Positions 876-55,237 of a stretch of 64,000 nucleotides of DNA are shown here, in pieces. The stretch is from an uncultured bacterium. Its GTDB lineage: Bacteria; Bacteroidota; Bacteroidia; Chitinophagales; CAIODY01. Each line of letters opens with the position of its first letter. The first letter of the stretch is position 1. A program made the position numbers and the translations under genes. The notes below the pieces were generated by a model. That model was given only the letters and a program-made list of their open reading frames with translations. It made no database searches and was not told the DNA's origin. Where the stretch lies: assembly GCA_903857255.1 (NCBI GenBank), contig CAIODY010000091.1, positions 11,831-75,830 of the forward strand, given 5' to 3'.

Positions 876-883
876 TATTTTTG
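876..883 (+). promoter_or_regulatory. Bacteroidota-type -7 promoter box (TATTTTTG)
   Basis: It matches TAnnTTTG and lies 20 nt upstream of the ATG at 904. Confidence 0.4.
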
Positions 884-903
884 GTTTCCAAATTTTTTAA
901 GGC

Positions 904-6799: not shown

Positions 6800-7759
6800 A
6801 TGAAAAAGTTTATTTACGCTATTGCAACATCATTAATAGTTGCACATTCTTATGCACAAGCACCGCAAGCCGATAACGATTTGTATCCGCCAAATGCAGA
6901 GCCAGGCAAGTGTTACGCCAAATGTTTGAAGCCCGATGTGTTTGAAACTGTTACTGAAAAAGTGATGATTGAACCTGATAAAAAAGCGTACAGAATTATT
7001 CCGACAACATACAAAACGGTTACCGAACAAGTGATGGTGAAAGCCGAAACGAAGCGTTTGGAAATTATTCCAGCAGTATATGAAACGCAAACTGAACAAG
7101 TAAAAGTGAAAGACGAAACGAAGCGTTTAATCAACATTTCAGCTACTTACAAAACAGTTACAGAGCAAATGTTGACAAAACCCGAAGGGCAAAAATGGGT
7201 GAAAAAACATCAAACTGGTTGCTTGAGCGAAAACCCTGATGATTGCATTATTATGTGTTTGGAAAAAACACCTGCTGAATACAAAACTGTTACCAAACAA
7301 GTGTTGGATAAACCAGCTTCCACTCGTGAAGAAGTGATTCCAGCTGAATACAAAACCGTAACTAAAACTGTGGTGAAAACACCTGCCACTACTAAAGAAA
7401 TAGTAATTCCAGCCGAATACAAAACAGTTACCAAACAAGTGGTTGATGTAGCTGCTCATACAGTAGATGTAAACACACCGGCTGAATATCAAACGGTTTC
7501 AAAACGTGTTTTGAAAACAAAAGGTGGTTACAGCGAATGGAAAGAAATTGTTTGCGATAACAAAGTAAATACAGATGTGGTAAGTCAAATTCAATCTGCT
7601 TTGAAAAAGAAAGGTTATGATATTGGACCAAAAGGCGTTGATGGTGTTTTAGGAACTGATACCAAAGCTGCTTTGGTGAAATATCAAAAAGACAATTCAT
7701 TGCCTGTTGGTAATTTGAACATCGAAACGATGAAATCTTTGGGTGTAAAATTTGACTAA
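6800..7759 (+). CDS. secreted protein with seven (P)AEYKTVTKQV-type repeats and a C-terminal peptidoglycan-binding (PG_binding_1-like) domain
   Basis: Signal peptide MKKFIYAIATSLIVAHSYAQA. There are seven copies of x-Y-[KEQ]-T-[VQ]-[TS]-[EK]-[QTR]-[VM] (TTYKTVTEQV, AVYETQTEQV, ATYKTVTEQM, AEYKTVTKQV, AEYKTVTKTV, AEYKTVTKQV, AEYQTVSKRV). The C-terminus GYDIGPKGVDGVLGTDTKAALVKYQKDNSLPVGNLNIETMKSLGV resembles the PG-binding helical domain. Confidence 0.8.
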   Translation: MKKFIYAIATSLIVAHSYAQAPQADNDLYPPNAEPGKCYAKCLKPDVFETVTEKVMIEPDKKAYRIIPTTYKTVTEQVMVKAETKRLEIIPAVYETQTEQVKVKDETKRLINISATYKTVTEQMLTKPEGQKWVKKHQTGCLSENPDDCIIMCLEKTPAEYKTVTKQVLDKPASTREEVIPAEYKTVTKTVVKTPATTKEIVIPAEYKTVTKQVVDVAAHTVDVNTPAEYQTVSKRVLKTKGGYSEWKEIVCDNKVNTDVVSQIQSALKKKGYDIGPKGVDGVLGTDTKAALVKYQKDNSLPVGNLNIETMKSLGVKFD

Positions 7760-14300: not shown

Positions 14301-17300
14301 TACAAGCGGAACATGTAGTATTTCAGGAACCATTAGTCCTGCAGGGTCAGGCACAGCAGGCACTTTGAGTACTGGTAATTTTACTTTTGCTAATGGAAGT
14401 GCTTATACTTTGGATATTACAGATGTTGGCACAGCAAGCACCAATTGTGATAAAATTGCAGCAACAGGTACTTTTGCAATTGCTACAACAACCACTATTA
14501 ATGCTACTTTCAGTGGAAATGCCGTAACAAATTTTATTCCTACAACAACTTACAGTTGGATAATCGGAACTTATACTTCAGGCACACCATCTATCGGAAC
14601 AGTAACTGTGAATGCAAGTGGAGTTACGACCCAAGGGCAATTCACAGTGAGTGCAAGCGGCGGAAATATTTTATTGACTTATACACCAACCACCATCACC
14701 ATTTCATCACAAGCCGCATCAGCAGCTAATTTGACGCAAAATACTACTAACAACAATATCTATACTTTGATAGGAACGGCATCTGGAGCTTCGGTTACAG
14801 TTACTTCAGTAACATTCAGCGGAACATATACTGCTGCTGATTTAACGAATTTCAAATTGTATTACAACACAACAGGAACATTCGGAACAACAACACAATT
14901 GGGCAGCACAATTACTTCAATACCGACAAGCGGAAACGCAATAACTTTTTCAGGTTTCAATCAATCTATTGCTGTTGGCACTCCAGGATATTTTTATTTA
15001 AGCACTGATATTCCTTGCGCTGCAACAGGCGGAAATACTTTACAAATCAACGCTGTAGCTACTACTGACATTGGAACAACCTCGGCTGTGGCTGGTTCTA
15101 CATCCGCTGGTTCAAGTTTTAGTGTGGTGGCAACTACGCCAAACAATATTGCATCGGTTACACCAACAGCAGGTAATAACCAAGTGTCAGTTGCATTTGC
15201 AACGCCAAGCGGTTGTTATAGTGAAGTGATGATAGTTGCTACAGCCACTAATGCCAACAACAATGGTACACCAACAGGCAATGGAAGTAACTATACTGCC
15301 AGTTTAACTTATGGAAGCGGAACTGCTTTTGGAAATGGATTTGTTGTTTACAAAGGCTCAACTTCACCGCAAGTGGTAACTGGATTGACAAACGGAACGC
15401 TTTATTATTTCAAAGTGTTCACAAGAAACGGAACATCGTGGAGTAGCGGTGTAGAATCAAGTGCAACGCCAGCATTAATACCTGCAACTATTTATCAGCA
15501 AGGATTTGAAAGCGGGACTTTATCATCACCAAATTATTCTGGCGGAGCCACGATGGATGCTAATTTGAGCAATTCGAATTGGACAATAGCTGCAGGAACA
15601 TTACAAACATTTCAGGGTAGTGGTGGCACTGGAACCAAAGCTCTTGGCGTATCAAGTGGAAGTACATCCACACCTTACACACTTACTTTTTCCGTAGCAA
15701 GTGGCTATCAACTTTCAGTAACATCTTTTAGTTTTTGGAGCAACACTTCTTCAACATGTGCTGTAAGTTCAATAACCATTAACGGTATTACAATTACATC
15801 GGGAACAATTTCATCAACAACATCTTCTTCGGGTGTAAGCACTGGAACTTTAAGTGTTGCAAATACAGTTTCAGGTTTAACAGGAACAATTACCGTGGTA
15901 GTAAACATAACAGGTTCAGGTTCTTATAGAATTGATGATTTCACTTTAATAGGAAATGTAACTACAGTTCCAAACTATTATTTAGCAGCTAATACAGACC
16001 CAACCGTTGCTGCCAATTGGAGCACCAACACTAATGGAATTGGGGGAACTCAACCTACGTCAATGACTGCACCCGGATATTGGTATGTAACTCAAAACAG
16101 TAACACACCAACAACAACTTGGACAAACAGCTGGCTGCCAACAGGAACTGTCTATGTAGCTGCAGGTAGCACATTTAACATTGCAGGCACGATGGATTTG
16201 AGCAGTTCAACACAAATTGTTGCTTTAGGTTCTTCAGCTACGATTAATACAACTGCACCCGGATACATCAAAACCAGCAACAGCAGTGGGTTTTATGGCA
16301 GCACATCTACATCAATCAGCAATGCTAATAGTCCAACCATCAGCTTGAATAACGCATCAACAGTAGAATATTATGGCACAAGCACTCAAACTGTAACTAC
16401 AATTGTAACTTATGGAAATGTGAAATTCACTGGCAGTGGCGGCACTTACAACATTTCATCAGCTTTAGGAACAAGCGGTTCGCCTTATGTTTTTGCCAAT
16501 GGCACTTTAACCTTATCGGCTGGAACGCTTTATTTATCAATTGCTGCGGCTAATACAAGTTATATTTCGGTAGGAAATATTTCAATCATAGGTGGCACTT
16601 TAGATAATAATTCAACAGTTTCAGGAAATTCATGTTATTTGTATGTAAGTGGTAACTGGTCGCAAAGTGCAGGCGTAGTGCAGTTTTCAGGAACTGGGTA
16701 TGGCAAAATAATTTTTAATGGTGGAGCTTCATCTTCCTATTCAGGATTAATTTCCAGCTCAAGTTTTACTTATTGGTTAATGCAAGTTACCAACTCAACT
16801 TCATTAACATTAAATAGTAATGTAGCATTGAATGGATTTACAAATGGCACCAATGTTTTTACACTTGACTTAAGCTCAACTTTGATTGATGGCGGATATA
16901 CAATTTTAGCCAACAACTCAAGCGGAACCGCCAGTGGTAATGCTTTTGTGATTAGCGGCAATTATAAAGCAAGCAACAAAAATGGTTTTTCAGGAACGGT
17001 GTCAACAATTATTTCAACTTCATCAACCTCATTGCAACTTAGCAGCAGCACTTACAATTTAATTTCTTTAGGAAGTTCATCAACTGTTGAATATGCAGCA
17101 ACAACAGGCACACAAACAGTTAGCGCAAGAAGCGATTACAACAATATGACATTATCAGGTGGCAGCGCAAAAACATTAGGCGGCGCATCAACTGTGTCAG
17201 GCGTTTTAACTTTGACTAATGGAATTTTGACAACTACTTCTACCAATTTATTAACGCTGACAAATACTGCAAACACAGCAATATCAGGCGGTTCAACTAC

Positions 17301-20300
17301 TTCATTTATTAACGGACCAATCACTTGGACATTGGGAATTGCATTAACAGGCACTTACATCGTTCCAGTTGGGGTTACCTCAACTTATTATCCGATGGCA
17401 TTTGCAGCAGGAACAATCTCAAGCGGAAACCCAACTATCAATGTTCAAGCATTTTCTACATCACCAACCGGAACAGCTGATGGCAGCACGATTGCAGCCG
17501 TTGGAACGGAATATTGGAAAGTTATAACTACTGGTTCAACATTTGCTGTGTCATCATTTTCATTAGCAAAAACTACCAGCTTAGGTTCGATGAATGTCAT
17601 TGCTAAAAGCACTACCAATGCGGCTTTGAGCTTCTCAAGTATTGGTGGAAGTTCGGGAACTGTGAGCAGCACAACTGGTTTAGTGAACAGCAGCAGCGGC
17701 TTGAATGGTGCATCAACACTGTATTTGTGCTTTGGTCAAACATTTCAAACTTATTATTTATCAACTGGTGGCGCAACAAATAATTTAACTGATTGGTTTA
17801 GCAATAGCAATGGAACTGGCTCTAATCCTACATCTTTTACAGGTGTTGGCATTTATTGGAACATCATCAACAACACTTCAGTAACTAATGCAGCAGCTTG
17901 GACTTTGGGTAGCAATTCAAAAATAATTGTGGGCGATGGAACAAATGCAACAACGTTCACCATTCCATCATCAGCTGCTATCACAGGCACAACGGATGTT
18001 TCAAACAATGCTAACGAAATTATTCAATCTTCAAGCATCCCAACTTTCGGAACAATTTCAACAGGCAGCACTATTACTTATGACGGCACATTGGCGCAAA
18101 CCATTACTGCTGCTACTTATTACAACCTAACTATTTCAGGAAGCCGTGCTGCAAATGTGATTACATTGCCTTCACGACAAATAACAGTGAACAACACCTT
18201 TGACCCAAGTGCTTATAGTTCAACAGCATCTACGCCAGTAGTTGTTGGTACAGATACTTTCAACTTTAGCAGTGCATCGGCACAAACAGTTCCTGCATTT
18301 TATTATGGTAGGTTAAATTTAGGAACAGGACCGAGAACTTGGGCTTCAAGCGGCATCATTGATATCAATCAAGGATTTACGCCAACTTCAGGAACTAATA
18401 CGATTACAGGCAGTACTATTAGGTATTCAAGCAATTCATCGGGTTGGCTTTTATCATCATTCGCTACCAACATTTCGGGTTATCAATATAACAACTTGAT
18501 GTTTTCGGGCAGTGGTTCATGGTCAATGAATAATTTGGCATTAAAAGTGAAAAATGATTTGACAGTTTCGGCTGGAACATTAATCTTAAATGGTTCATCA
18601 TCCGCATCCAATGCGGTTTTTACGGTGGATGGAAAAGTAACTTTAAGTGGTGGAACAATTTTAACAAACAGCAATACCACTTACACTTCAACATTTAATA
18701 TCGGCGGAGATTTTACTTTGAATGGCGGAACGCTTACTCGTTCAGCCAGTGCTGCTGCGGCTTTAGTAGTTTTCAACAGTTCATCATCTACACAAAATTA
18801 TACACAAACATCGGGAACAATTTCTGGGACAATGTCAATTAATGTTGGAACGGGTTCAACAACCAACATCTTGAAATTGGCTTCCAACATGACTTTGGGC
18901 TCGGCAACAAGCAACAACATCACTGTAAATGTTTTGAATGGTTCAGCGATTGATTTCGGAACAAATATTCTTTCACAAAATTCAACAGGTGGCATTTTCA
19001 ATTTGCAAAGCGGCGCAAATTTGTATTCAGGAAATGCAAACGGAATTGTGGCAACGATTCCAAATACAGGTTCGGTGCAGGTTTCAACAATTACTTACAA
19101 CACGGCTGCGAATTATTTTTACAACGGCAGCGTTAATCAAATCACAGGAAGCGGCTTGCCGACTACTATAAATAATTTGACGATAAATAATTCAGCATCA
19201 AGCGGCGTTGTGAGCTTAACCAATTCTACAGCACCTAACAATTTATTTTTGAATAATGGCTATTTCAAAATTCCTTCGAGCATTAATTTGAATATGCCTA
19301 CAAGCAGCGTCATTACTGCAAATGGTGGCGATTTTGAATCTTCATCATCAGGTAATATTAATTTTGCTGGAAGCAATTTGATAAGCGGCGTTGTGAGCCT
19401 TTACCCAATTGTAAATGTAAATGGTTCAGTTGATTTTGGTAGTGCTTCGGCAATTTATAGCACAATGAAAATGAATAATGGTGGCAGCGTAATCAACAAT
19501 CCACCATATTATATCGCAGGTTCAACATTACAATACAACGCATCTACCAATCGTGGATTAGAGTGGAGTGCAACAATTAATCAAGGCTATCCATACCATG
19601 TTCAAATTAGCAACAGCATCACCTGCAATGCCAGTGGTGGAGCGGCTTCTACGGCTCGTCAATGCGGTGGAAATTTAACGATTGATAATGGTTCAACTTT
19701 TACCATGAACACAACTGCTGACCAAATGACTGTGCCAGTAACTGTAAAAGGAAACATGAACATCAATGGAACACTTGAATTATCGGGCGTTGCAGGTGGC
19801 GATTTAGTAGTAAAAGGAAATTGGACAAGAGCCAGCGGTGCAACATTTACACAACATCATCGTAAAGTAACCTTTGGTGGCGCATCACCTCAAACTATTG
19901 CTGCACCAAATATTTCGGCTGAAACCTTTGATGCCATTGCAATTAACAATACTTCTAACGGCACTAACAGTGGTGTGTTGCTGGCAAATGGGAATAATTT
20001 AGTAGTAAATGATAGCTTAATTTTAACTAGTGGAAAATTAAATGTAGGCAGTGGTGAAGTACAAATTTTAAGCACTTCGGTAAACGCTATTCAAGGTCAT
20101 GCAAGCATAAGCAGCAATCCAGCGACATCTAATTCATTTGTAGTTGGTGCAATTCGCAGAAAAATTTCAACCACAGCGGCTGCTTATGATTTCCCATTAG
20201 GAACTGATGCAGATAAATATGAAGTAGCGCAAATCAATGTGAATAGCAATGTGGATGTGGATAATTTGAAAGCAACGTTCAATCCTTTTGCCACAGCTGC

Positions 20301-21270
20301 TTGTAGCTATACTGGTAACTTACCTAATTTCAATGCGCCACCGCCAAGCAACGCAGGTATTCACGGCACACAGATAGTTGATATGTTGAATTATGGCTAT
20401 TATCAAGTAGAGCCTTATGATGCAACCAATTCACAAATGACTAACTATACTATCAATTACGACGCTCAAATGGCTTTCAACGGACATAGCAATGGTGTAG
20501 TAGGTTCAACTGCAGCAGGCGCACAATGTTATACTTTAATCAAAAAGCCTGCATGCGATAGTGCTTGGGGTTTGGGCGGTGGCACTTACAATAGCACCAT
20601 GCAACAAAGTGCAACTACTCCAACTTTAACATCAACCGTTACTTTGAAATTATTTGGCTTAAATGGTTTTTCAGAATTTGATGGTGGATTCAGCCCTGAT
20701 GCTGTATTGCCAATTGAATTGGTGAATTTCACAGTACAACAATCAGGCAATAATGCCGTGTTGAATTGGAACACGGCTTCAGAAAAAAACAATGATAAAT
20801 TTGAAATTGAAAGAAGCCTGAATGGTTTTGCTTTTGAAAAAATTGACGAAGTGAAAAGCAAGGGTGAAATGGCTAATAGCTATGATTTCGCAGACGCCAA
20901 CATCACTAATCTTAACAATAATATTTTGTATTATCGTTTGCGTCAAGTTGATTTTAATGGCAATTTCACTTATTCACCAGTTCGTTCGCTGATTTTGAAT
21001 AATGATGGAAAAGGCTTTGTGGTTAATACTTTTTATCCAAATCCGTTCAATTCATCTATTAAAATTCAACTGACTTCAACTAACACCAGTGATGCTAATT
21101 ATCAATTGTTTGATACCAAAGGCACTTTAGTTTTGCAATCAACCTTGCACATCAACAAAGGCGAAAACCTTTTAAATGTGGATGGTTTGGACAATTTAGC
21201 CAACGGCGTTTATTTGTTGAAAATAATCAGTGGCAGCAACGTATTCAACACTACTTTGCAAAAACAATAG
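11326..21270 (+). CDS. giant (3314 aa) T9SS-secreted beta-helix or adhesin-like protein with autotransporter-associated beta-strand (PATR-type) repeats
   Basis: Signal peptide MKRNLTRSLLATAFFFIFCLVTSNDSWG. Composition is extremely biased to S/T/G/N/A. PATR-like repeats include GSGSLTLSAVNTYTGGTSVSGGTLVVSG, LAGSNTYTGTTSVSGGTLTLSG and GILTLSGANTYTGTTTVSAGTLGLNG (nt about 12700-14350). There is an FN3-like piece, VTGLTNGTLYYFKVFTRNG. The C-terminus fits a T9SS sorting domain (FYPNPFNSSIKIQL...GVYLLKIISGSNVFNTTLQKQ). Confidence 0.9.
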   Translation: MKRNLTRSLLATAFFFIFCLVTSNDSWGQVTLSGTSYTQNFDGTTLPTGWSARDNATSTTLGSSTNTPATSNTWASTTGEFRFCASAKTPLTASSTSTAQNNATDRCLAIRPSGSFADPGQSFSLQIANTTGFTSFSISFSAQLLDPQVRTSTYAVQYGLGTSPTTWTTVGTTFTDLGINSGSWGATTISRSFSSSLDNKSGNVWIRIVCLTASSGSGSRCTFGIDDVNLTWSGPTNYYWNGSNTSALSGNWNTSSNYFSTPTATTTLAPWVDGSSNTANFQTANGGTVTLVANRTFNQANVSGTNFIFSTANGGGSGYQLNGPIVLAASAALQMPVDNSLTNDATLDLLGNLSGGSSSALNIRCNTTTAANSSRINLAANNVAVSVPTVNITGSGTSQAGFVATATGTTVSSNIVNSSSAATMIGATGSNDITITGNISGSGSVLFAAGQNGGNGNITLTPSTSNTYNGTTYFNGGTGIVKLGNVNGLSSSSDIVMGANSTYGQTLDLNGVSPTFQSLASNGGTGSITNNSTSANSTLTVNQTSTKTFGLVISDGSNKTTAFTKAGSGSLTLSAVNTYTGGTSVSGGTLVVSGNTSASGAYTVSNATLNITGTPTVAASYNLNTSGTLLILGQSNTGTNPGSFTAAYISMNGGTIQCNASGIDFSNSSAKYKGITLNSGGGTMDANGANTITLQPTITGTGALTLTNSGAAGGVIVIYQGSNNGTVGSLAHTYSGGTTINGGTNGVTVRLGSAQGLPTTTALSFSNTANTTFDMTNNGAGNYNQQVFSLSGGGSNGGNINLGSATLAVSGTQTTSYSGVISGTGGVTCSSSSVQTLAGSNTYTGTTSVSGGTLTLSGTNSYNGSLITGGTLSVSADANLGTAPGSPTTNITLGGGTLSATSSFTLNTNRKITLTNSTSSNIDVASGQTLSYGGIISGGGNLSKTSAGILTLSGANTYTGTTTVSAGTLGLNGSLTSNTTVSNGATLSGTGSTSGTCSISGTISPAGSGTAGTLSTGNFTFANGSAYTLDITDVGTASTNCDKIAATGTFAIATTTTINATFSGNAVTNFIPTTTYSWIIGTYTSGTPSIGTVTVNASGVTTQGQFTVSASGGNILLTYTPTTITISSQAASAANLTQNTTNNNIYTLIGTASGASVTVTSVTFSGTYTAADLTNFKLYYNTTGTFGTTTQLGSTITSIPTSGNAITFSGFNQSIAVGTPGYFYLSTDIPCAATGGNTLQINAVATTDIGTTSAVAGSTSAGSSFSVVATTPNNIASVTPTAGNNQVSVAFATPSGCYSEVMIVATATNANNNGTPTGNGSNYTASLTYGSGTAFGNGFVVYKGSTSPQVVTGLTNGTLYYFKVFTRNGTSWSSGVESSATPALIPATIYQQGFESGTLSSPNYSGGATMDANLSNSNWTIAAGTLQTFQGSGGTGTKALGVSSGSTSTPYTLTFSVASGYQLSVTSFSFWSNTSSTCAVSSITINGITITSGTISSTTSSSGVSTGTLSVANTVSGLTGTITVVVNITGSGSYRIDDFTLIGNVTTVPNYYLAANTDPTVAANWSTNTNGIGGTQPTSMTAPGYWYVTQNSNTPTTTWTNSWLPTGTVYVAAGSTFNIAGTMDLSSSTQIVALGSSATINTTAPGYIKTSNSSGFYGSTSTSISNANSPTISLNNASTVEYYGTSTQTVTTIVTYGNVKFTGSGGTYNISSALGTSGSPYVFANGTLTLSAGTLYLSIAAANTSYISVGNISIIGGTLDNNSTVSGNSCYLYVSGNWSQSAGVVQFSGTGYGKIIFNGGASSSYSGLISSSSFTYWLMQVTNSTSLTLNSNVALNGFTNGTNVFTLDLSSTLIDGGYTILANNSSGTASGNAFVISGNYKASNKNGFSGTVSTIISTSSTSLQLSSSTYNLISLGSSSTVEYAATTGTQTVSARSDYNNMTLSGGSAKTLGGASTVSGVLTLTNGILTTTSTNLLTLTNTANTAISGGSTTSFINGPITWTLGIALTGTYIVPVGVTSTYYPMAFAAGTISSGNPTINVQAFSTSPTGTADGSTIAAVGTEYWKVITTGSTFAVSSFSLAKTTSLGSMNVIAKSTTNAALSFSSIGGSSGTVSSTTGLVNSSSGLNGASTLYLCFGQTFQTYYLSTGGATNNLTDWFSNSNGTGSNPTSFTGVGIYWNIINNTSVTNAAAWTLGSNSKIIVGDGTNATTFTIPSSAAITGTTDVSNNANEIIQSSSIPTFGTISTGSTITYDGTLAQTITAATYYNLTISGSRAANVITLPSRQITVNNTFDPSAYSSTASTPVVVGTDTFNFSSASAQTVPAFYYGRLNLGTGPRTWASSGIIDINQGFTPTSGTNTITGSTIRYSSNSSGWLLSSFATNISGYQYNNLMFSGSGSWSMNNLALKVKNDLTVSAGTLILNGSSSASNAVFTVDGKVTLSGGTILTNSNTTYTSTFNIGGDFTLNGGTLTRSASAAAALVVFNSSSSTQNYTQTSGTISGTMSINVGTGSTTNILKLASNMTLGSATSNNITVNVLNGSAIDFGTNILSQNSTGGIFNLQSGANLYSGNANGIVATIPNTGSVQVSTITYNTAANYFYNGSVNQITGSGLPTTINNLTINNSASSGVVSLTNSTAPNNLFLNNGYFKIPSSINLNMPTSSVITANGGDFESSSSGNINFAGSNLISGVVSLYPIVNVNGSVDFGSASAIYSTMKMNNGGSVINNPPYYIAGSTLQYNASTNRGLEWSATINQGYPYHVQISNSITCNASGGAASTARQCGGNLTIDNGSTFTMNTTADQMTVPVTVKGNMNINGTLELSGVAGGDLVVKGNWTRASGATFTQHHRKVTFGGASPQTIAAPNISAETFDAIAINNTSNGTNSGVLLANGNNLVVNDSLILTSGKLNVGSGEVQILSTSVNAIQGHASISSNPATSNSFVVGAIRRKISTTAAAYDFPLGTDADKYEVAQINVNSNVDVDNLKATFNPFATAACSYTGNLPNFNAPPPSNAGIHGTQIVDMLNYGYYQVEPYDATNSQMTNYTINYDAQMAFNGHSNGVVGSTAAGAQCYTLIKKPACDSAWGLGGGTYNSTMQQSATTPTLTSTVTLKLFGLNGFSEFDGGFSPDAVLPIELVNFTVQQSGNNAVLNWNTASEKNNDKFEIERSLNGFAFEKIDEVKSKGEMANSYDFADANITNLNNNILYYRLRQVDFNGNFTYSPVRSLILNNDGKGFVVNTFYPNPFNSSIKIQLTSTNTSDANYQLFDTKGTLVLQSTLHINKGENLLNVDGLDNLANGVYLLKIISGSNVFNTTLQKQ

Positions 21271-30495: not shown

Positions 30496-30658
30496 TTTGC
30501 AAATTTGATAATTAAATACAATGGCTTCATTCTGTAATAGAAGAAGTTAAAATTTGAAAATAGAAAAGCTAAAAAAATAAAAAAGTAGAGTTGAAAATAA
30601 AAGTTTAAAATCATTTTTAAATTTCTAAATTTTCAAATCTTCAAATTGAAAATAACTT

Positions 30659-32833: not shown

Positions 32834-32968
32834 GCAATTTGAAAATTTGAGAATGAGAAAATTTGAAAATTGAAATACAGATTCTTTGTTTGATTCAGAA
32901 TGGCAACCAATTGAAACCGTCATCCTGAACGAAGTGAAGAAACTAAAAAAAATAGAACTGAAATAAAA

Positions 32969-33649: not shown

Positions 33650-33755
33650 TATTATGAATTAGGTATCAAGTATTATGATGTTCTTCTTAATTCCTAATAC
33701 TTAATTCTTAATTCAGCAATCAATAAATCTAAAATCATTAAATAGAAAATATTAA

Positions 33756-34979
33756 ATGGGACATCACAACACAGAAGTAGATTTGAATGAACGTTTTGAA
33801 TTTCCAGCAAAACTAAAGAACATAGCGTTTGGCTTGATGGGCGTTGGTTTGCTAGCGTTTTTAGCTGGCGTATTCATTAGTCATGATAGCACACGAACAT
33901 TGGCTGTCATGTTGCAAAATGGTTTGTTCTTTATGTTGATTACATTAATCAGCACATTTTTTATCGCTATTCACTACATGGCAAATGGCGGTTACATGGT
34001 CGCATTGAAGCGTATTCCTGAAGCTATAAGCCAAACGATGCCAATCATTGCTTTGTTTGTTTTTGGGTTGATTGCTTACATCATTTTAGGAAAACGCAAT
34101 GACATTTTTATTTGGTTAAATATTCCAGCTATTAAAAATGCTGAAGCTCGTGAATTGTTGGAAGGGAAAACGGGTTATTTGAATGTGCCGTTTTTTATCG
34201 TTCGTATCATTGCTTATTTAACAGTGTGGAGTTTTGGCGTAATGCAATATCGTAAGTTCTCTTTGCAAGAAGATGCAGCACCAGCAGGTTCGATGAAAAA
34301 CCACATCAACAGTCGTTTGTTCTCAGGGTTCTTCTTAGTATTTTTTGCAGTAACTATCTCTACTTCATCATGGGATTGGTTAATGAGTATTGATGCAAAA
34401 TGGTATTCAACCATGTATGGTTGGTATTGCTTTGTAAGTGCTTTGGTGAGTGGCATTTCACTAATGATGTTAGTGATACAATATTTAAGAAACCAAGGTC
34501 ATTTGAAAGCTGTTACTGATGAACATGTTCATGACTTAGGTAAATTCATGTTTGCATTCTCCATCTTGTGGACTTACCTATGGTTCTCACAATACATGTT
34601 GATTTGGTATTCAAACAACCCAGAAGAAACAGTTTATTTCCGCCAACGTTATGACCATTACAAAGTATTATTCTATTTGAATTTGTTGATGAACTTCGTT
34701 ACACCAATTTTTGTGTTGATGAAAAACACTTCAAAAAGAAATTCAAGAGTATTGGTGTTTATTGCTTCTGTTATCATCATTGGTCATTGGGTTGATTATT
34801 ATCAAATGATTATGCCTGGTACAGTTGGCAACAACTGGCATATTGGAATGCAGGAAATTGGTTTACCGATTTTCTTTGTTGGATTGATTATCTGGAGAAC
34901 ATTCAGTCAATTGGAAAAAGCGCCATTGATTCCGAAAAATCATCCTTATTTGCAAGAGAGTTTGCATCATCATGTATAA
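33756..34979 (+). CDS. actF: Alternative Complex III subunit ActF (second NrfD-like membrane subunit)
   Basis: 407-aa polytopic membrane protein immediately after actE. This is the standard ACIII gene order. Confidence 0.82.
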   Translation: MGHHNTEVDLNERFEFPAKLKNIAFGLMGVGLLAFLAGVFISHDSTRTLAVMLQNGLFFMLITLISTFFIAIHYMANGGYMVALKRIPEAISQTMPIIALFVFGLIAYIILGKRNDIFIWLNIPAIKNAEARELLEGKTGYLNVPFFIVRIIAYLTVWSFGVMQYRKFSLQEDAAPAGSMKNHINSRLFSGFFLVFFAVTISTSSWDWLMSIDAKWYSTMYGWYCFVSALVSGISLMMLVIQYLRNQGHLKAVTDEHVHDLGKFMFAFSILWTYLWFSQYMLIWYSNNPEETVYFRQRYDHYKVLFYLNLLMNFVTPIFVLMKNTSKRNSRVLVFIASVIIIGHWVDYYQMIMPGTVGNNWHIGMQEIGLPIFFVGLIIWRTFSQLEKAPLIPKNHPYLQESLHHHV

Positions 34980-39712: not shown

Positions 39713-40399
39713 ATGAGTTCAACAGCAACGACAAGTTCAAACGTATGGGGTGGTGGCGTATCACCATTTAATGTGCGTTGGGGAAAATTAATGATGTGGT
39801 ACTTTTTGGTGAGTGATGCTTTTACCTTTTCTGCCTTACTGGTAGCTTATGGCACTATTCGCACCATGAATCCTTGGTGGCCTAACCCACAACATGTATT
39901 CCGCAGCTTTCCTTTTTGTGGCACTGCCAATTTACCGCTGTTATTCGTAAGTTTAATGACTTTCATCCTCATCATGAGTTCGGTAACTATGGTGTTGGCT
40001 GTTTACGAAGGACATCGCAACAACCGCAACAAAGTGATTATGTGGATGATACCAACTATTATTGGTGGTATAGCTTTCTTGAGTTGCCAAGCTTGGGAAT
40101 GGACACATTTAATTGTTGACGAACATACCCGTTTAACATCTAACTTTTTTGGTCCGATAGTAAATGGCGAAGAAACACATGGTCCAGCACAATTTGGTCA
40201 GTTGTTTTTTGTTATCACAGGTTTCCACGGCTTTCACGTATTTTCGGGGGTTATTATCAATATCTTATTAACACTTGCAGTGGCAAAAGGAACATTCGAT
40301 AAAAAAGGAAATTACGAAATGGTTGAAAAAGTAGGCTTATACTGGCACTTTGTAGATTTAGTGTGGGTATTTGTGTTCTTGTGTTTTTATCTTTTATAA
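39713..40399 (+). CDS. cytochrome c oxidase subunit III family protein (second copy)
   Basis: 228 aa with FFVITGFHGFHVFSGV and GLYWHFVDLVWVFVFLCFY, both typical COX3 motifs. Confidence 0.85.
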   Translation: MSSTATTSSNVWGGGVSPFNVRWGKLMMWYFLVSDAFTFSALLVAYGTIRTMNPWWPNPQHVFRSFPFCGTANLPLLFVSLMTFILIMSSVTMVLAVYEGHRNNRNKVIMWMIPTIIGGIAFLSCQAWEWTHLIVDEHTRLTSNFFGPIVNGEETHGPAQFGQLFFVITGFHGFHVFSGVIINILLTLAVAKGTFDKKGNYEMVEKVGLYWHFVDLVWVFVFLCFYLL

Positions 40400-40402
40400 C
40401 CC

Positions 40403-40484
40403 ATACAATTTAACCACAAAGGCACAGTAGTTTTCATAGCAATACAAAATGCAAGCGACGCATAGTTTCGCAAGCGAAAAAAAA
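40403..40484 (+). repeat. intergenic repeat element, copy 3 (cox3 to subunit IV spacer)
   Basis: catacaatttaaccacaaaggcacagtag...caatacaaaatgcaagcgacgcatagtttcgcaagcgaaaaaaaa. It starts 4 nt after the upstream stop codon. Confidence 0.75.
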
Positions 40485-40511
40485 TAATTCATAATTCATA
40501 ACTCAATTAAT

Positions 40512-40880
40512 ATGTCAGAAGAAGTACACGAACACGAAGCATCAAGCCCAAAAACAATTTGGAGAACTTTCTGGATTTTATTGGCAATTACTATTGGTGA
40601 AATTTTGTTTGCAGTTTTAGTTGCACCACACATGGGCGGCAAACTAATCCCTAACTTATTATATGCTGTATTGTCTATCATGAAAGCAGGCTATATCATT
40701 TCTGAATTTATGCACATGAAATACGAAGCCAAAAACTTGATTCGTACAGTAGGTTTACCAACCTTGCTTTTGATTTGGTTAATCACCGCTTTAGCCATGG
40801 AAGGCACCAGTTGGAAACACATGATGAACAAACCCATGCCCGAAGGTGCTGAAATGGAACATGCGGCTGCCAGCAAATAA
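40512..40880 (+). CDS. prokaryotic cytochrome c oxidase subunit IV family protein
   Basis: 122 aa and three TM helices (TFWILLAITIGEILFAVLVA...). It is the last gene before the operon terminator. Confidence 0.72.
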   Translation: MSEEVHEHEASSPKTIWRTFWILLAITIGEILFAVLVAPHMGGKLIPNLLYAVLSIMKAGYIISEFMHMKYEAKNLIRTVGLPTLLLIWLITALAMEGTSWKHMMNKPMPEGAEMEHAAASK

Positions 40881-40900
40881 ACGATGCTGCTAAAAATATT

Positions 40901-40936
40901 AAAAGCCTCTTTACCATAGTGTAGAGAGGCTTTTTT
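40901..40936 (+). terminator. intrinsic terminator closing the ACIII/cox cluster
   Basis: A 10-bp stem, gcctctttac (40905-14) pairing with gtagagaggc (40921-30) with one G-U pair, has a 6-nt loop and is followed by TTTTTT. Confidence 0.75.
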
Positions 40937-41106
40937 ATTGCCTTGTTTCAATGGCTGTATAATCAAGATGGGTGGATAATTGCTGAACTGCTGTGATGCT
41001 TTGAGATGAGCGGTATTGCTTTTTTATAAAAAATGATGAAAACTTTTTCGATTTCATTTAATATATTCGCAACCTATTTTTTTAATCACCTAATTATCCC
41101 AATTTT

Positions 41107-42969
41107 ATGAAGGTAAACAAACTGATTATTGCACTATGCTTAGTGTTTGTTGGCTATACTACTATTACTTTAGCTCAATCGAAAAAGAAGAAGAGTAATA
41201 CCGAACAAACCGATGATGAAAACACTGATGATGCACCCAAAAAATCATCGAAGAAATCAAAAAAAGCGGCGGAGGAGGAGGATGGAAGCGATGCCGATTT
41301 TAAACCTACCAAAAGTGCTAATAGAATTGAAGTGGATATAAAAGTAAAAGACAATTCTGATGGCTCATCGAGTGCGGTGGTAGTGCCTGTGGGCGAAGAT
41401 GGGGTAATATTGTTTGCACAAAGTGCCGAACACAGCAAGGATGGGGCAAAGCAATGGCTTTTCAAACACTATGATACCAAATTAAACGAAATTGCTAACA
41501 CTTCTTATGGCGTTAATAAAAGTGTTGCCTTCTTTAAATATTATTTCGATAAAGAAAAGAATGCCATTTATATTTTGATGGGCGAAAAAGGTAAATCGGG
41601 CAGTGCTGAAAACGAAGCCAACAATGTTTATATGGAAGGCAATGTGGAAATTTTGAAGTATAATATCAAGAACGATAAAATTTCTTCTACCGCTGGTATG
41701 TTACCAGTGCGAACCTCTATCAATAGTTTTGTGGAGAAAAAAGGTACGGCTTATTTTGGTGGTAATACTTTGCCCAGTAGCACACAAATTTATTTAAAGC
41801 AATGCTATATTTTTGGGTTGTGTTGTATTCCGGGCTTATTAGGTGCTGCTCACATTCCATACCATCCTATTTTGTTTAAAGCCAACCTAAAAGAAAAAAA
41901 TTTCACTTTAGAAACCATGAATTATTCGGGCGATGCTTCGGTGGTTAATATATCTACTGGCGATGATGTGGATGAAGTTTCGGCGGCAGTGGCTAATCGC
42001 CCAAGTAGTAAGGAGCCTGCCAAGATGTATTTGAAGAATTTTGAAGCAGGCAAATTGGTTAGCACTTATAAATTTAAAACAAAATCAGATGAAGAGCTGA
42101 CTAACGCTTCTATTTATAAACTTTCGCAAGGCGATGATTTAGTTTTTGGCACTTATGCTGCACCTTTGGCTGATAAACCCTTCTTAAAAAAGATACAAAA
42201 GTTTGAAATCTCTTATAACACCAATAGTGCCGATGGATTTTTTATTTCTCGGTTTATCGAAGGCAAACAAAAATATCTAAAACGCTTCAATTTTGATAAG
42301 TATATTGAAGTTAGCGCACCATCTTCATTTTTTATTGGCAAAAAAAGAGTGGCAAAAATGATTAAATCATCCATGTCGTTTCTTTTACAAAACGTTATTA
42401 AGAAAGATGATAACCATTATGTATTAATTGGGGATATTTTTATGCCACATTATCATACTGCATATAGAAGTAATGGTAAAACCACCGAAGCTGTTCAAGT
42501 ATTTGATGGTTGGTTGTTTGTAGCTGCTTTGGTATGCAACTTCGACCCCGAAGTTGGTAAGATGAATTGGATTTCGGTACTCCATGCGTATGATTTTAAA
42601 CACTCTAAAGATAATGCCATTTCTATTTCATCTACCATACGCCCCAAAGTGCAAATTTTGCCATCAGATAATACCGATAATATAGTAGCTGTGTATAACG
42701 ATGGTAAACACATCAAATCTACTATCATTGCGCCCGATGGAAGTGTTACAGAAGGCAGAAAAAAGACTATTGATATGGGCTTGAAGAATGATAAAGATAA
42801 AGTAACCAATACTTATGGCGGCGGACAGGTAGATTATTGGTATGGTAATTACTTTATTGCTTATGGTGCACAACGAATTAAAACCAAAGGGCAATTATTT
42901 GGCGGAAGAAGAACTATTTTTTACATCAATAAGATTGCTTACAAACAAAAAGCTACTACTGACGATTAA
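41107..42969 (+). CDS. hypothetical secreted protein (620 aa) with a K/E/D-rich low-complexity N-terminal region
   Basis: Signal peptide MKVNKLIIALCLVFVGYTTITLAQS, then KKKKSNTEQTDDENTDDAPKKSSKKSKKAAEEEDGSD. I recognise no catalytic motif. Confidence 0.7.
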   Translation: MKVNKLIIALCLVFVGYTTITLAQSKKKKSNTEQTDDENTDDAPKKSSKKSKKAAEEEDGSDADFKPTKSANRIEVDIKVKDNSDGSSSAVVVPVGEDGVILFAQSAEHSKDGAKQWLFKHYDTKLNEIANTSYGVNKSVAFFKYYFDKEKNAIYILMGEKGKSGSAENEANNVYMEGNVEILKYNIKNDKISSTAGMLPVRTSINSFVEKKGTAYFGGNTLPSSTQIYLKQCYIFGLCCIPGLLGAAHIPYHPILFKANLKEKNFTLETMNYSGDASVVNISTGDDVDEVSAAVANRPSSKEPAKMYLKNFEAGKLVSTYKFKTKSDEELTNASIYKLSQGDDLVFGTYAAPLADKPFLKKIQKFEISYNTNSADGFFISRFIEGKQKYLKRFNFDKYIEVSAPSSFFIGKKRVAKMIKSSMSFLLQNVIKKDDNHYVLIGDIFMPHYHTAYRSNGKTTEAVQVFDGWLFVAALVCNFDPEVGKMNWISVLHAYDFKHSKDNAISISSTIRPKVQILPSDNTDNIVAVYNDGKHIKSTIIAPDGSVTEGRKKTIDMGLKNDKDKVTNTYGGGQVDYWYGNYFIAYGAQRIKTKGQLFGGRRTIFYINKIAYKQKATTDD

Positions 42970-42997
42970 AAGTGTACGACAACAATCACTTATAAAG

Positions 42998-43029
42998 GCT
43001 CAAACTGTAATGGTTTGGGCTTTTTTTTT
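42998..43029 (+). terminator. intrinsic terminator after the 41107..42969 gene
   Basis: Stem gctcaaac (42998-43005) pairs with gtttgggc (43013-43020) with one G-U pair. A run of nine T follows. Confidence 0.7.
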
Positions 43030-43034
43030 GCGGC

Positions 43035-43214
43035 TTACCCCCTTTTAGGAAAATTTCACCCCTTTTTTTTTCTGAAAAGGGGGTGAAAAAAATTAAAAGA
43101 CTACCTTTTTTAAAAATTTCACCCCCTTTTTTTTAAATTTTAGGAGTAAGAATTTTCAGAAGGGGAGTAGTTTTTAAAATTTCACCCCTTTTTTTATTTT
43201 TTTCACCCCTTTTG
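43035..43214 (+). repeat. phased array of TTTCACCCC(C)TTTT motifs (five direct copies plus one full inverted copy)
   Basis: The reference A of the motif (ttcAcccc or ttAccccc) is at 43037, 43058, 43121, 43184 and 43205, giving spacings of 21, 63, 63 and 21 nt. An inverted copy, aaaagggggtgaaa, is at 43075-43088. Confidence 0.85.
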
Positions 43215-43274
43215 CTAATAAAAAAAGCTGTGTTTTGATTATTTTTTCTACCAAGCTCACCTACCATACATCAT

Positions 43275-43295
43275 GTGGAAAAACCATGTGGATAA
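43275..43295 (+). promoter_or_regulatory. two DnaA-box-like 9-mers 12 nt apart
   Basis: TGTGGAAAA (43275-83) has one mismatch. TGTGGATAA (43287-95) is the exact complement of TTATCCACA. Both sit inside the direct repeat CATGTGGA(A/T)AA. Confidence 0.3.
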
Positions 43296-43344
43296 ATATT
43301 ATATGAAACAATAGTTTCTTTTTTGGAAAATTATTGAAAGTGAT

Positions 43345-43352
43345 TATTTTTG
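43345..43352 (+). promoter_or_regulatory. candidate -7 promoter box (TATTTTTG) for the 43392 gene
   Basis: It matches TAnnTTTG and lies 40 nt upstream of the ATG. Confidence 0.35.
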
Positions 43353-43391
43353 TTATACAAATCTATTTTCTAACCACTAAATTTTTTAAAA

Positions 43392-44057
43392 ATGACTTTA
43401 ACACAACATGTATCTTACGATTTTGTTACCATGAAAGTAGCCGATAAAACTATTTTCGGCGAAAAAGTTTACACCCAGCTATTAGCCAATGCAGCCACTT
43501 TCATAGGTTTGCCTCATGCGCCTGCTGCTGTGCAGGCGGCTAATACTGATTTGGCAAATAAAACTGCTGCCGCTGACAATGGCGATAAAACTGCTATTGA
43601 TAACAGAGATGCTTCAGAAAAAGCTTGGATAAAAATTTTTAAAGAAAATGCTAAATTGGTTGATAACACTGCTAATGGCGATAAAACCATTATTGATAAA
43701 AGTGGTTATAATGCTACTAAAGCTAATAGTGAGCATACGGTAGCACCTACTTCATTAACTAATCATCAAACCAGTGTTGATGGCATGACTAATGCTATAA
43801 AAAGCAGTGTAGATGCGGATACTAATATAGCTGCTTTTGTGCATTTTGCTAAAACTGCCAATGTGCAGGTGCAGCAAATGGGCAATCAGCTCAATTTTAC
43901 TGTAGGCACTGAAAAAATCAATATTGTTTTCGATACACATCGTAGCGTTGTGATTAATGGTTTGGCAAGCCATGTGGCAGTGCAGGTACAAGCCATGGGG
44001 ATTAACTTAGCTGGTGCCAGTCAGTTGACTAATGCCCGAACTAATTCACCACAATAA
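43392..44057 (+). CDS. hypothetical protein (221 aa)
   Basis: A clean ORF with its own candidate promoter box and a strong downstream terminator. It has no signal peptide and no motif I recognise. Confidence 0.65.
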   Translation: MTLTQHVSYDFVTMKVADKTIFGEKVYTQLLANAATFIGLPHAPAAVQAANTDLANKTAAADNGDKTAIDNRDASEKAWIKIFKENAKLVDNTANGDKTIIDKSGYNATKANSEHTVAPTSLTNHQTSVDGMTNAIKSSVDADTNIAAFVHFAKTANVQVQQMGNQLNFTVGTEKINIVFDTHRSVVINGLASHVAVQVQAMGINLAGASQLTNARTNSPQ

Positions 44058-44113
44058 TCTAAAAAGGGTATAGATGGCTGGTTAATAGCCAATAATAATT
44101 GTACTAAACCTTG

Positions 44114-44149
44114 AGTATGGCGAACTTTTAAAGTTCGCCATACTTTTTT
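44114..44149 (+). terminator. intrinsic terminator
   Basis: A perfect 14-bp stem, agtatggcgaactt pairing with aagttcgccatact, is followed by TTTTT. Confidence 0.8.
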
Positions 44150-53176: not shown

Positions 53177-55093
53177 TCATTTTCTTATCACAGTGCCCGA
53201 AGCCTTTGCCAAATCAGCTTTCATAACACTTAATTGCAGATGAATATATTGCAACTGAATTTCTTCTTCTAAGTTTTTTTCAGTTTTTATTTTTTGCAAA
53301 TTCTGGTTAATCAACTTCAATAATTTTTTCAGTTTAAAATGATGAACAGATGAGTTGACATCTTCTTCAAAATTCATTTCACGGTCTTTAATAAATATCT
53401 GATGTTTCGATTCCCAATTGGGGCTCAACAAATATTGGTCTTTCAACAATTCGGCTACAAACGCCGATATTTCCTCATCAGGCGAATTAATAAAACTACT
53501 TGAATCAAAAGAATTTGTTTGTTCAAACTCTTGCAAAAACTGATTGAAAATTTTTGCACACACCACATTATCAATCAAACTGATTTCGATTTCATCAAAT
53601 AAAAATTCAGCAACAGTTTTATTATTACTCAAAGTTTTACTTCCCCATTCCAGCAAAATGCGAATTATATTTTTTTCCTGTTCTTCATCAGGATTCCCAT
53701 GAAAAAAATCGGGTTGTGTTGTTTGGTCAAAATTACTAACCGACTGTTGTTGTAGTAATGAAGCGTCTTCCGAAGGAATGGCGGCATTTTTTTTCAATGC
53801 TGTTCGCATCAAATTATTCACTTCTCTTATCACCATTTCTTCACTCAATTGCATTAAGCCGCAAAACTCTTTGATGTATTCACCACGAACAAATCCATCC
53901 GGAATTTTTCCAAACATGGTTATCAAATCCTTTGTTACAGCCGCTTTACGATAAGGGTCAGCTTTTGTTTCTTCTATTGAAAATTGAATTTTGAATCGGA
54001 TAAAATCTTTCGCATTCTTCAACACAAATTCGTTGAAACCTTGTGCGCCGTGCTTGTGCATGTAGCTATCAGGGTCTTCGCCATCAGGCAACAACACAAT
54101 TTTCAAATTCAAACCTTCTTCAATTATCAGTTCCAATCCTCTCAATGCTGCTTTAATACCTGCTGCATCGCCATCGTACAACAACACAATATTTTGTGTG
54201 TAACGTTTTATTAATCTTATTTGGTCAATCGTCAAAGCCGTTCCACTGCTGGCTGCCACGTTTTCAACACCACCTTGATGCAAAGAAATTACATCCATAT
54301 AACCTTCTACCAAATAACAAAAATCATTTTTTGCAATTGGATTTCTTGCTTGATACAAGCCATACAAAACTTTGCTTTTGTGATAAACTTCTGTTTCGGG
54401 GCTGTTGAAATATTTTGCAACCGTTTTATCTTTTCGCAACGTACGTGCGCCAAAAGCCACCACCCTGCCCGATACATTATGAATGGGAAAAATTACACGA
54501 GCTCTAAAAAAATCAGCATTGCGTTGTTGTGTGGTCAATCCGCTGCTTTTTAATAATTCTAAAGTAAAACCTTTTTCCTGCCCATAGTTGGTGAAAGCCT
54601 GCTCTGAATCAGGGTTATAGCCGAGTTCAAATTTTTTCATCACGGCTTCACTCAACTGGCGTTCTTTAAAATAACTCATGCCAATTGATTTGCCTTCATC
54701 GGTATTCCATAATTGCTCAACAAAATATTCTTTGGCTAATTGATTGAGCGATAAAAGTTGCTCACGTGATTTTTGTTCCTCAATTTGCTTGGGCGATAAT
54801 TGCACATTGGCAATGGCAATGTTGTATTTTTTTGCCAGCCACTCCAACGATTCGGGATAAGTGAGGTGCTCATGCTCCATCACAAATTTTGTAACATTAC
54901 CTGCCTTGCCACAACCAAAACATTTGTAAATGCCTTTAGCCGCCGAAACCGTGAATGATGGCGATTTTTCTTCGTGAAATGGACAATTGCCAATATAATT
55001 TACGCCACGTTTTTTCAACGAAACGAAATCGCCGATAACGTCTTCAATTCGAGCTACGGAAAGTATTTGCTGTATGGTATCGGGTGCTATCAA
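53177..55093 (-). CDS. dnaG: DNA primase
   Basis: Zinc ribbon CPFHEEKSPSFTVSAAKGIYKCFGCGKAG and a TOPRIM region (LVEGYMDVISL, LLYDGDAAGIKA). It uses a TTG start. Confidence 0.93.
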   Translation of the reverse strand: MIAPDTIQQILSVARIEDVIGDFVSLKKRGVNYIGNCPFHEEKSPSFTVSAAKGIYKCFGCGKAGNVTKFVMEHEHLTYPESLEWLAKKYNIAIANVQLSPKQIEEQKSREQLLSLNQLAKEYFVEQLWNTDEGKSIGMSYFKERQLSEAVMKKFELGYNPDSEQAFTNYGQEKGFTLELLKSSGLTTQQRNADFFRARVIFPIHNVSGRVVAFGARTLRKDKTVAKYFNSPETEVYHKSKVLYGLYQARNPIAKNDFCYLVEGYMDVISLHQGGVENVAASSGTALTIDQIRLIKRYTQNIVLLYDGDAAGIKAALRGLELIIEEGLNLKIVLLPDGEDPDSYMHKHGAQGFNEFVLKNAKDFIRFKIQFSIEETKADPYRKAAVTKDLITMFGKIPDGFVRGEYIKEFCGLMQLSEEMVIREVNNLMRTALKKNAAIPSEDASLLQQQSVSNFDQTTQPDFFHGNPDEEQEKNIIRILLEWGSKTLSNNKTVAEFLFDEIEISLIDNVVCAKIFNQFLQEFEQTNSFDSSSFINSPDEEISAFVAELLKDQYLLSPNWESKHQIFIKDREMNFEEDVNSSVHHFKLKKLLKLINQNLQKIKTEKNLEEEIQLQYIHLQLSVMKADLAKASGTVIRK

Positions 55094-55237
55094 GGCAATT
55101 TGATAATGTGATAATATGCTAATGTGCTAATAAAAATTATTTCGATTGAGCAACATTTTTTCTTTACAAAAGTAAATTAAAAAGTGAGAATTATCTGATT
55201 GCAATAATTCAGCAATTAAGAGATGTTGTGCTGAAAT

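Follow-up and report, generated by a model that had tools for sequence, protein, structure and literature searches.

A phased 21-nt repeat array, most likely a gene-control element, upstream of an uncharacterized Bacteroidota gene family

The operators of LytTR regulators (AgrA, ComE and HdrR/BrsR type) combine a 9-bp direct core with a 12-bp spacer, which gives a centre distance of 21 bp, and lie upstream of the regulated promoter (PMC6193735). Plasmid and phage iterons are direct repeats of 17-22 bp that are bound by Rep initiators, and partition centromeres (R1 parC, F sopC, tubC) are long arrays of 7-12 or more units, made of short phased repeats and often of dyads, which lie beside a regulated operon and keep their architecture while their sequence changes fast. 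The ARG boxes of ArgR are 18-bp palindromes 3 bp apart, with their centres spaced by 21 bp on one face of the DNA, where an oligomer binds them. Curved DNA built from phased A-tracts is likewise known upstream of promoters, as in Clostridium perfringens plc and in phage promoters. Here, we report a tandem array of 21-nt units in a 64,000-nt stretch of DNA from an uncultured bacterium of the Chitinophagales (contig CAIODY010000091.1); this whole stretch is referred to as the window. The array lies upstream of a gene for a 221-amino-acid (aa) protein and is most likely a gene-control element, not a replication origin. The class of 21-bp upstream arrays to which it belongs is apparently undescribed: the literature on such tandem repeats in Bacteroidetes gave no relevant description, which is weak evidence of novelty because the coverage was incomplete.

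The comparison covers 12 independent loci, namely the window and 11 mutually divergent family members out of about 190 clusters. The relatives are all metagenomic, one of them from a Chitinophagales metagenome-assembled genome (MAG), and are named here by the contigs that hold them (L008 to L145). They represent eleven different gene neighbourhoods, with GC contents of 35-51% where computed, and their proteins share 61, 56, 36, 35, 35, 33, 28, 27, 25, 24 and 23% identity with the window protein. In all 12 loci, the upstream intergenic region of the gene contains a period-21 array (Table 1). A register-tracking script found 9-15 units per array at a spacing that is almost always 21 nt and at times 20 or 22 nt; the arrays are 190-320 bp long and lie 20-170 bp before the start codon. 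TRF independently reported a period of 21 nt or its multiples (41/42, 62/63, 83/84 and 104) in all loci, and the spectra of the arrays have a fundamental at 20.6-21.5 nt and a harmonic at 10.1-11.0 nt. Comparable arrays are essentially absent from the rest of these loci and of the window (about 130-135 kb examined). The unit sequences, on the other hand, are unrelated from locus to locus. Conservation in relatives had been proposed as a check in a preliminary description of the window made from the sequence alone; the locus is indeed conserved, in the form of a common period carried by unrelated units.

Within an array, a core or dyad of 9-14 bp is well conserved and is framed by A- and T-tracts, which come back at intervals of about 10.5 bp. 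The units usually carry a dyad of the form A3-5-xy-N-y'x'-T3-5, and inverted half-sites alternate about once per helical turn. Whole units are inverted in the window, L015 and L017, and the sub-array ends of L017 carry palindromes of 15+15 nt. In 11 of the 12 arrays, the strand with the sense of the gene is rich in C and poor in G (two-sided binomial, approximately 0.006); the array thus has a polarity relative to the gene.

Since period, size, position and polarity are kept while the sequence turns over, we regard the array as an element under selection that acts at the DNA level for the downstream gene. Our preferred reading, to which we assign a probability of about one half, is that the repeats are a conserved upstream cis-element of one gene family and provide a cooperative regulator with a phased platform from which to control the downstream promoter. 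A sequence-specific protein is favoured because conservation within the unit is highest in a specific core instead of the A/T tracts, and because inverted copies exist; as slippage alone gives no inverted copies, those in the window, L015 and L017 count for this reading. Each 21-bp unit, which corresponds to two helical turns, would expose an identical face of a helix that is mostly bent, and a sequence-specific regulator from another locus would bind once per two turns and oligomerize or wrap the DNA. The bound array would then set the activity of the downstream sigma-A-type promoter. Probable candidates for the regulator are a dimer or a LytTR-like protein that binds direct repeats. Protein binding to the array, the identity of the protein and the choice between activation and repression are what we infer beyond the observed features of the array.

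Several points weigh against this reading. No binding protein was identified, and the 12 loci share no conserved neighbouring regulator; the protein encoded next to the array is close to neutral, with a family median isoelectric point (pI) of 6.7, and lacks a DNA-binding fold. The arrays of the window and L008 end about 85-110 bp upstream of the promoter, beyond typical class I/II activator sites. Furthermore, a single orthologous regulator would be expected to leave some motif conservation across species, and none is seen, while the identity among units within an array could stem from concerted evolution instead of selection on a recognition sequence. Finally, the bent helix is the prediction of a wedge model that passed three sanity checks only, and no curvature is predicted for L014 and L015.

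A bolder version, which we hold only tentatively, treats the arrays as a 'helical-phase enhancer', i.e. a class of cis-regulatory satellites in which architecture is selected (21-bp period, 9-15 units, dyad and A/T frame, fixed polarity) and sequence turns over. Such satellites might be read by a fast co-evolving factor or by DNA shape, and would be dedicated to the family with a helical bundle and an FN3 domain. If the arrays are confirmed as a conserved element, this would tie an uncharacterized and fairly widespread Bacteroidota family to a dedicated upstream DNA architecture that can be recognized computationally, and the period-21 array would become a handle for family promoters in metagenomes. 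It would also offer a rare clean case for separating the read-out of shape and phase from that of bases in bacterial gene control, and would mark a strongly regulated gene with a function worth study.

In the window, the array fills the space directly behind the terminator of a gene for a 620-aa protein. The preliminary description had reported five direct copies of a motif made of a C-tract and a T-tract. Its reference positions (an A at 43037, 43058, 43121, 43184 and 43205, spaced by 21, 63, 63 and 21 nt) are confirmed from the sequence, but degenerate units such as AAAAGACTACCTTTTTT occupy the 21-nt slots in between, and the result is a continuous run of about nine units. The unit AAAAGACTACCTTTTTT is similar to AAAAGAnGCnTCTTTT, the type of unit found in L008 and L012, which are the closest relatives. 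Two readings needed correction, as the first short copy, given as TTCACCCC, reads TTACCCCCTTTT, and the degenerate inverted copy AGAAGGGGAG, placed at 43159-43168, sits one base further left. Register tracking gave nine units with every spacing at 21 nt, the autocorrelation of the array laid out in 21-nt rows peaks at 63 and 84, and its spectrum peaks at 21.2 and 10.4 nt. The proposed phasing of the copies on one helical face, at multiples of 21 nt, holds in structural terms and is even stronger than was claimed; inverted copies are part of the array. A repeat search returned three copies of a 31-nt unit at 63-nt spacing, as well as three to four copies of a 27-31-nt unit spaced by 63/63/20 nt. 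The hairpin that had been proposed between 43054-43067 and 43075-43088 is also supported, with 13 of 14 positions complementary and a loop of 7 nt; folded as single-stranded DNA, it reaches -11.3 kcal/mol (z = -2.4).

The motif TTTCACCCC(C)TTT occurs five times inside 160 nt (four direct and one inverted). With up to one mismatch, TTTCACCCCTTTT has six matches in the 64 kb, five of which lie in 43054-43213 (four on the plus and one on the minus strand), whereas shuffled sequence yields 0.32 expected matches per 64 kb and a maximum of two. The remaining match is a one-mismatch site at 7192-7204. In agreement with the earlier claim, the motif is otherwise unique in the window. The hexamer CACCCC alone is not enriched window-wide (11 seen versus 10.5 expected), so the signal is the clustering of copies. 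A coding repeat was considered, as 21 nt equals seven codons, and no open reading frame (ORF) spans the window array. Scattered copies of the kind formed by repetitive extragenic palindromes (REP), bacterial interspersed mosaic elements (BIME) or miniature inverted-repeat transposable elements (MITE) were not found in the 64 kb, apart from the one-mismatch match.

Table 1. Positions of the array, its units and flanking features in the window, and of the arrays in the related loci
Locus	Feature	Position	Strand	Basis or detail
Window	620-aa gene, upstream of array	41107-42969	+	ORF
Window	Intrinsic terminator of 620-aa gene, 5' boundary of module	42994-43024	+	14-pair stem, then T9 run
Window	Tandem array	43030-43235	+	About 9-10 units of 21 nt, 63-nt (3-unit) super-period; consensus unit AAATTTCACCCCTTTTTTTTA; unit example TTTCACCCC-T(n)-A(n)
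Window	Short, degenerate first copy TTACCCCCTTTT (also written TTACCCCC)	43035-43046	+	Read from sequence
Window	Core copy TTTCACCCCTTTT, in long copy 43050-43071	43054-43066	+	Motif scan
Window	Inverted core copy (TTTCACCCCCTTT on minus strand)	43076-43088	-	Motif scan; pairs with 43054-43067 as 14-nt inverted repeat
Window	Degenerate unit AAAAGACTACCTTTTTT, dyad AAAAG-N5-CTTTT	43096-43112	+	21-nt rows
Window	Core copy TTTCACCCCCTTT, in long copy 43113-43134	43117-43129	+	Motif scan
Window	Degenerate inverted copy AGAAGGGGAG	43158-43167	+	Sequence; one of the inverted pairs in repeat search
Window	Core copy TTTCACCCCTTTT, in long copy 43176-43195	43180-43192	+	Motif scan
Window	Core copy TTTCACCCCTTTT, last copy, 21 nt past preceding one	43201-43213	+	Motif scan
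Window	Tandem 13-nt repeat CATGTGGAAAAAC/CATGTGGATAAA, between array and promoter	43272-43296	+	Genome-specific, outside conserved module
Window	Bacteroidetes sigma-A-type promoter of 221-aa gene	43321-43352	+	-33 TTTG (43321-43324), 20-nt spacer, -7 TATTTTTG (43345-43352)
Window	221-aa gene, monocistronic	43392-44057	+	N-terminal helical bundle, C-terminal FN3
Window	Intrinsic terminator of 221-aa gene	44113-44145	+	15-pair stem, then T run
L008	Array	3600-3850		
L012	Array	470-790		Unit AAAAGAAGCATCTTTTCGTC
L014	Array	2714-2940		Unit CCGTGCAACGTAACACAGCCC
L015	Array	2629-2950		Unit GAAGCGACGAAAATnnnTTTC
L017	Array	805-1045		Unit CTTCATCAGGATAAATTTTAT
L019	Array	2515-2835		
L021	Array	3030-3285		Unit AAAACCTTAAGGTTTTCACTC
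L022	Array	3930-4140		Unit TAAAACGCGCGTTTTAACC
L023	Array	4223-4425		
L024	Array	540-775		
L145	Array	2655-2865		Unit CTCAAACCTTACCTTTAAAAA

The promoter consensus of Bacteroidetes is TTTG / TAnnTTTG. A pattern scan found this promoter with 0 mismatches 47 nt ahead of the ATG of the 221-aa gene, and it aligns between the window and L008. The window, L008, L014, L019 and L022 have promoter-like TTTG...TAnnTTTG elements that precede the ATG by 32-47 nt; they lie downstream of the array or, in L022, at its 3' edge. Relative to the -33 element (TTTG), the window array extends from 290 to 85 bp upstream, with 107 bp between the end of its last core and this element. The terminator and the gene at 43392 that flank the array were correctly described before. 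Because the 221-aa gene has its own promoter and its own terminator, and the upstream gene is separately terminated, it is monocistronic. The earlier suggestion of a cooperative regulator array fits these results, since the repeats lie upstream of the conserved promoter of a monocistronic gene and the architecture recurs before every homologue examined.

An AlphaFold2 model of the 221-aa protein, computed with the family alignment, is confident, with a predicted local distance difference test (pLDDT) score of 93.5, and shows long helices bundled at the N-terminus (residues 10-104) and an FN3 domain at the C-terminus. Foldseek and a PDB profile search matched FN3 domains only, and searches of Pfam (E up to 10), NCBIfam, PHROG and PADLOC gave no match. 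Neither a DNA-binding fold nor a basic domain was found in the protein, and family members have no signal-peptide-like segment. Overall, there is no sign of DNA binding or of a Rep or Par role, and autoregulation by the 221-aa protein was set aside as unlikely on the grounds of its fold, its neutral pI and the missing basic domain. A phmmer search against 1.84 billion representatives returned 190 matches at E <= 0.001, nearly all of 215-225 aa; the family thus comprises about 190 clusters at 50% identity and is uncharacterized and unnamed. A word-indexed search retrieved only three relatives, and a scan of a genome collection with a three-sequence alignment retrieved only the Chitinophagales MAG already in the set. 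An identical 221-aa protein is encoded on 15 metagenomic contigs.

We describe the array as working like a phased operator or an upstream activating array. It is placed in none of the families introduced above, because at least one defining feature of each fails. The likeness to LytTR operators lies in the unit, which in the window consists of a 9-bp invariant core, TTTCACCCC, and 12 variable bases, with a 12-bp spacer between the copies at 43180 and 43201, within the 11-13 bp that separate LytTR direct repeats; in addition, ACCCCTTTT in the window and ACATCTTTT in L012 loosely resemble ACCNCTTAN. However, LytTR sites are pairs located about 4-11 bp upstream of the -35 element, whereas the present arrays have 9-15 units and end as far as 110 bp away on the upstream side. 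The 20 ORFs scanned in the window and the genes called in the related loci include no LytTR gene. The resemblance to the LytTR consensus is within the range of chance: ACCCCTTTT matches six of the seven specified positions of ACCNCTTAN, for which we estimate a chance of about 0.16 per 21-nt unit on either strand, and most other arrays have no match. With iterons, the arrays share the two-turn period, AT-rich surroundings and lineage-specific sequence, but they are chromosomal, have no Rep gene and are tied to a non-Rep family at unrelated sites. With partition centromeres, they share length, phasing, dyads, a position beside a regulated gene and fast sequence change within a kept architecture. 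Centromeres, however, are bound by a ribbon-helix-helix (RHH) or helix-turn-helix (HTH) protein of the adjacent operon, which also encodes an NTPase, while the neighbour here is a neutral protein with a helical bundle and an FN3 domain. ARG boxes resemble the arrays in their dyad-symmetric sites and 21-bp centre-to-centre spacing; they nevertheless form one or two pairs that overlap the promoter and have a consensus conserved across species, in contrast to 9-15 units without a conserved consensus. Known A-tract elements have A/T tracts at about 10.5 bp upstream of a promoter and strong predicted curvature, as do the arrays, although the known cases comprise 3-6 A-tracts within about 60 bp adjoining the -35 element, and the present elements extend over 190-320 bp, contain non-A/T cores and include two arrays that are uncurved in prediction. 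The Fur box was also rejected as an explanation for the class. Units of only two loci, L017 (GGATAATGATTATCC, 810-1040) and L019 (TAATAATTATTATCA and GGTAATAATTACC, 2515-2640), resemble the 7-1-7 Fur-box consensus, which could mean iron control or mere AT-rich palindromes.

The main rival to a sequence-specific regulator is a curved-DNA element that acts without a dedicated protein: phased A/T tracts would modulate the promoter via RNA polymerase wrapping, supercoiling or temperature sensing, or non-specific architectural proteins, and the unit sequence would be free to drift. We consider it unlikely, though it needs no cognate factor and accounts for a kept architecture with unrelated sequences. 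In a wedge model with Bolshoy-type parameters, under which A5N5 and A4T4 come out curved and T4A4 straight, the window array is the most curved predicted 126-bp segment of the 64 kb (rank 1 of 6388), and in nine of 11 loci no other segment is predicted to be as strongly curved as the array. An A/T-tract indicator peaks at about 10.5 bp in six arrays, and in most loci the predicted curvature of the arrays exceeds that of column-permuted versions with equal period and composition (5/11 at 5% or less). The exceptions are L014, which is GC-rich and has no A-tracts, and L015; both keep the exact 21-nt period nonetheless. Any 21-bp tandem repeat, moreover, gains some curvature trivially, the best-conserved part of the unit is a non-A/T core (TTTCACCCC, GTGCAACGTAACAC), and curvature leaves the polarity and the inverted copies unexplained. 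A neutral satellite that persists or regenerates beside the gene by replication slippage or unequal crossing-over would agree with the complete turnover of unit sequences between lineages and with the super-periods of 42, 62-63, 83-84 and 104 nt, which show growth by block duplication. It is improbable all the same: without selection, 12 of 12 deeply diverged lineages would not be expected to share period, size, position and polarity, and the other intergenic regions of the same loci have no such arrays.

An element acting as RNA has a similarly small chance. Here, transcription of the array, most plausibly in antisense direction and driven by a divergent promoter, would yield about ten small hairpins that serve as a small RNA or a protein sponge. 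Each unit contains a dyad, the two strands of the arrays are asymmetric, the fold energies are below those of shuffles on both strands, the minus (G-rich) strand is the more stable one in nine of 11 arrays, and the window has a perfect TAnnTTTG box on the minus strand at 43365. Nevertheless, base composition by itself would make the G-rich strand the more stable one, half of the loci have only weak promoter-like boxes on the minus strand or none, and a sense promoter has no space, as the upstream terminator ends at 43029 and the array begins at 43030. Alternating units break the pairing without compensation, for instance AAACCTTAAGGTTT versus AAACCTACAGGAAAT in L021, and Rfam covariance models gave no gathering-score match in the window or ten related loci, with only sub-threshold noise in the 42900-43450 region. 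The preliminary description had considered repeats of this kind typical of iterons at plasmid or phage origins or of partition sites, and direct repeats of about 21-22 bp on one helical face of an AT-rich region do recall such sites. The 13-nt repeat, 40-60 bp downstream of the array, holds a perfect DnaA-box 9-mer, TTATCCACA (minus strand, 43287-43295), and a one-mismatch box (43274-43282). In addition, a metagenome scan for TTTCACCCC-N10-40-TTTCACCCC returned 120 loci, most of which have 2-4 repeats of 20-22 bp in unrelated contigs and look like ordinary iterons; none contains the family gene, and the collection probably lacks this genome. An origin or centromere bound by a Rep or partition protein is still very improbable. 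The window has a low GC content (about 35%) and is a chromosomal region of Bacteroidota type with housekeeping genes (alternative complex III, cytochrome c, caa3 oxidase subunits, FtsX, DUF3098, UppP/BacA, SCO1, a sigma-70 factor and Era among the 20 ORFs scanned), in which no Rep, ParA or ParB gene was found. The adjacent proteins have no such domains, no ParA/ParM/TubZ NTPase or centromere-binding domain was detected beside the array, and the gene is monocistronic between two terminators. Comparable DnaA boxes are absent upstream of the other 11 family genes; tblastn of the linked gene gave no match in 72,556 plasmids, 50,697 phages or IMG/VR; and each of the 12 arrays has a chromosomal position unrelated to those of the others, in every case by the same non-Rep gene. 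Chromosomal 'iteron-like' repeats thus need not mean a replicon. Equally hard to credit is a contingency locus, in which slipped-strand changes of C/T tracts or of unit number would switch the downstream gene by phase variation. Slipped-strand variation had been raised earlier because the tracts differ between copies (C4-C5, T4-T9), and four short-read contigs of the same strain (L004-L007) begin inside the array or exactly at its 3' edge (43181-43225), where the breaks may reflect assembler trouble with repeats or heterogeneity in the population. However, the three contigs that span the intergenic region (L001-L003) match the window base for base, tract lengths included, and arrays are invariant in six of six near-identical sets (the window with L001-L003, L008-L011, L015/L016, L017/L018, L019/L020 and L145/L146), a small sample. 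The tract differences are also compensated, with the 21/63 register kept, and the array is located neither in an ORF nor between promoter elements but upstream of the promoter.

The region around the array has further features. The 620-aa protein encoded upstream has no match in Pfam, NCBIfam, PHROG or PADLOC. DnaA-box-like 9-mers with at most one mismatch number 32 across the window (about 0.5 per kb overall) against 22 expected, and nine of them lie within 3.3 kb (40041-43295), mostly in coding sequence. AT-rich tandem repeats of 7-8 nt, a different class from the 21-nt array, immediately precede several genes of the respiratory gene cluster and the gene at 53177-55093: ATTTTCAA x4.4 (30613-30647), AATTTGAA x5 (32836-32875), TTCTTAA x4.4 (33684-33757) and AATGTGAT x4.4 (55097-55131). 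The window also has two giant ORFs, 904-6720 (1938 aa) and 11326-21270 (3314 aa); the former contains 60-nt tandem repeats (1611-1860) that resemble the coding sequence of a repeat protein, and a 319-aa ORF (6800-7759) contains 69-nt repeats. Upstream of the 1938-aa ORF, weak self-similarity at 21, 42 and 63 nt (479-724) was inspected and dismissed, as no clear tandem array is present; the segment 611-766 is among the more curved predicted ones of the window.

Some minor observations concern the related loci and other contigs. In L022, a stop-free frame of the gene extends back through the array (3935-4831), which is probably coincidental given that 21 nt is seven codons. An unrelated metagenomic contig, L057, carries 15.7 copies of a different 21-nt unit, AGTTTCTAAAGGAGTGAAAGG (1893-2222), flanked by the stop codon of a 553-aa ORF on one side and a terminator-like hairpin on the other, so that 21-nt arrays exist in other contexts as well. 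Heptamer repeats (GGAGACA/AGGAGAC) flank the family gene past the stop codon in L015 (3675-3765) and at the start of the upstream intergenic region in L017 (354-387). A mobile cassette was considered for L015 and L016, which share 1.4 kb at 99% identity, but was rejected as there are no terminal repeats. L016, from the same sample as L015, departs from it in the upstream flank about 700 nt before the ATG, indicating a rearrangement, and has an IS3-family element (HTH_Tnp_1 and rve; 3709-5173) inserted 36 nt past the end of the family gene's stop codon.

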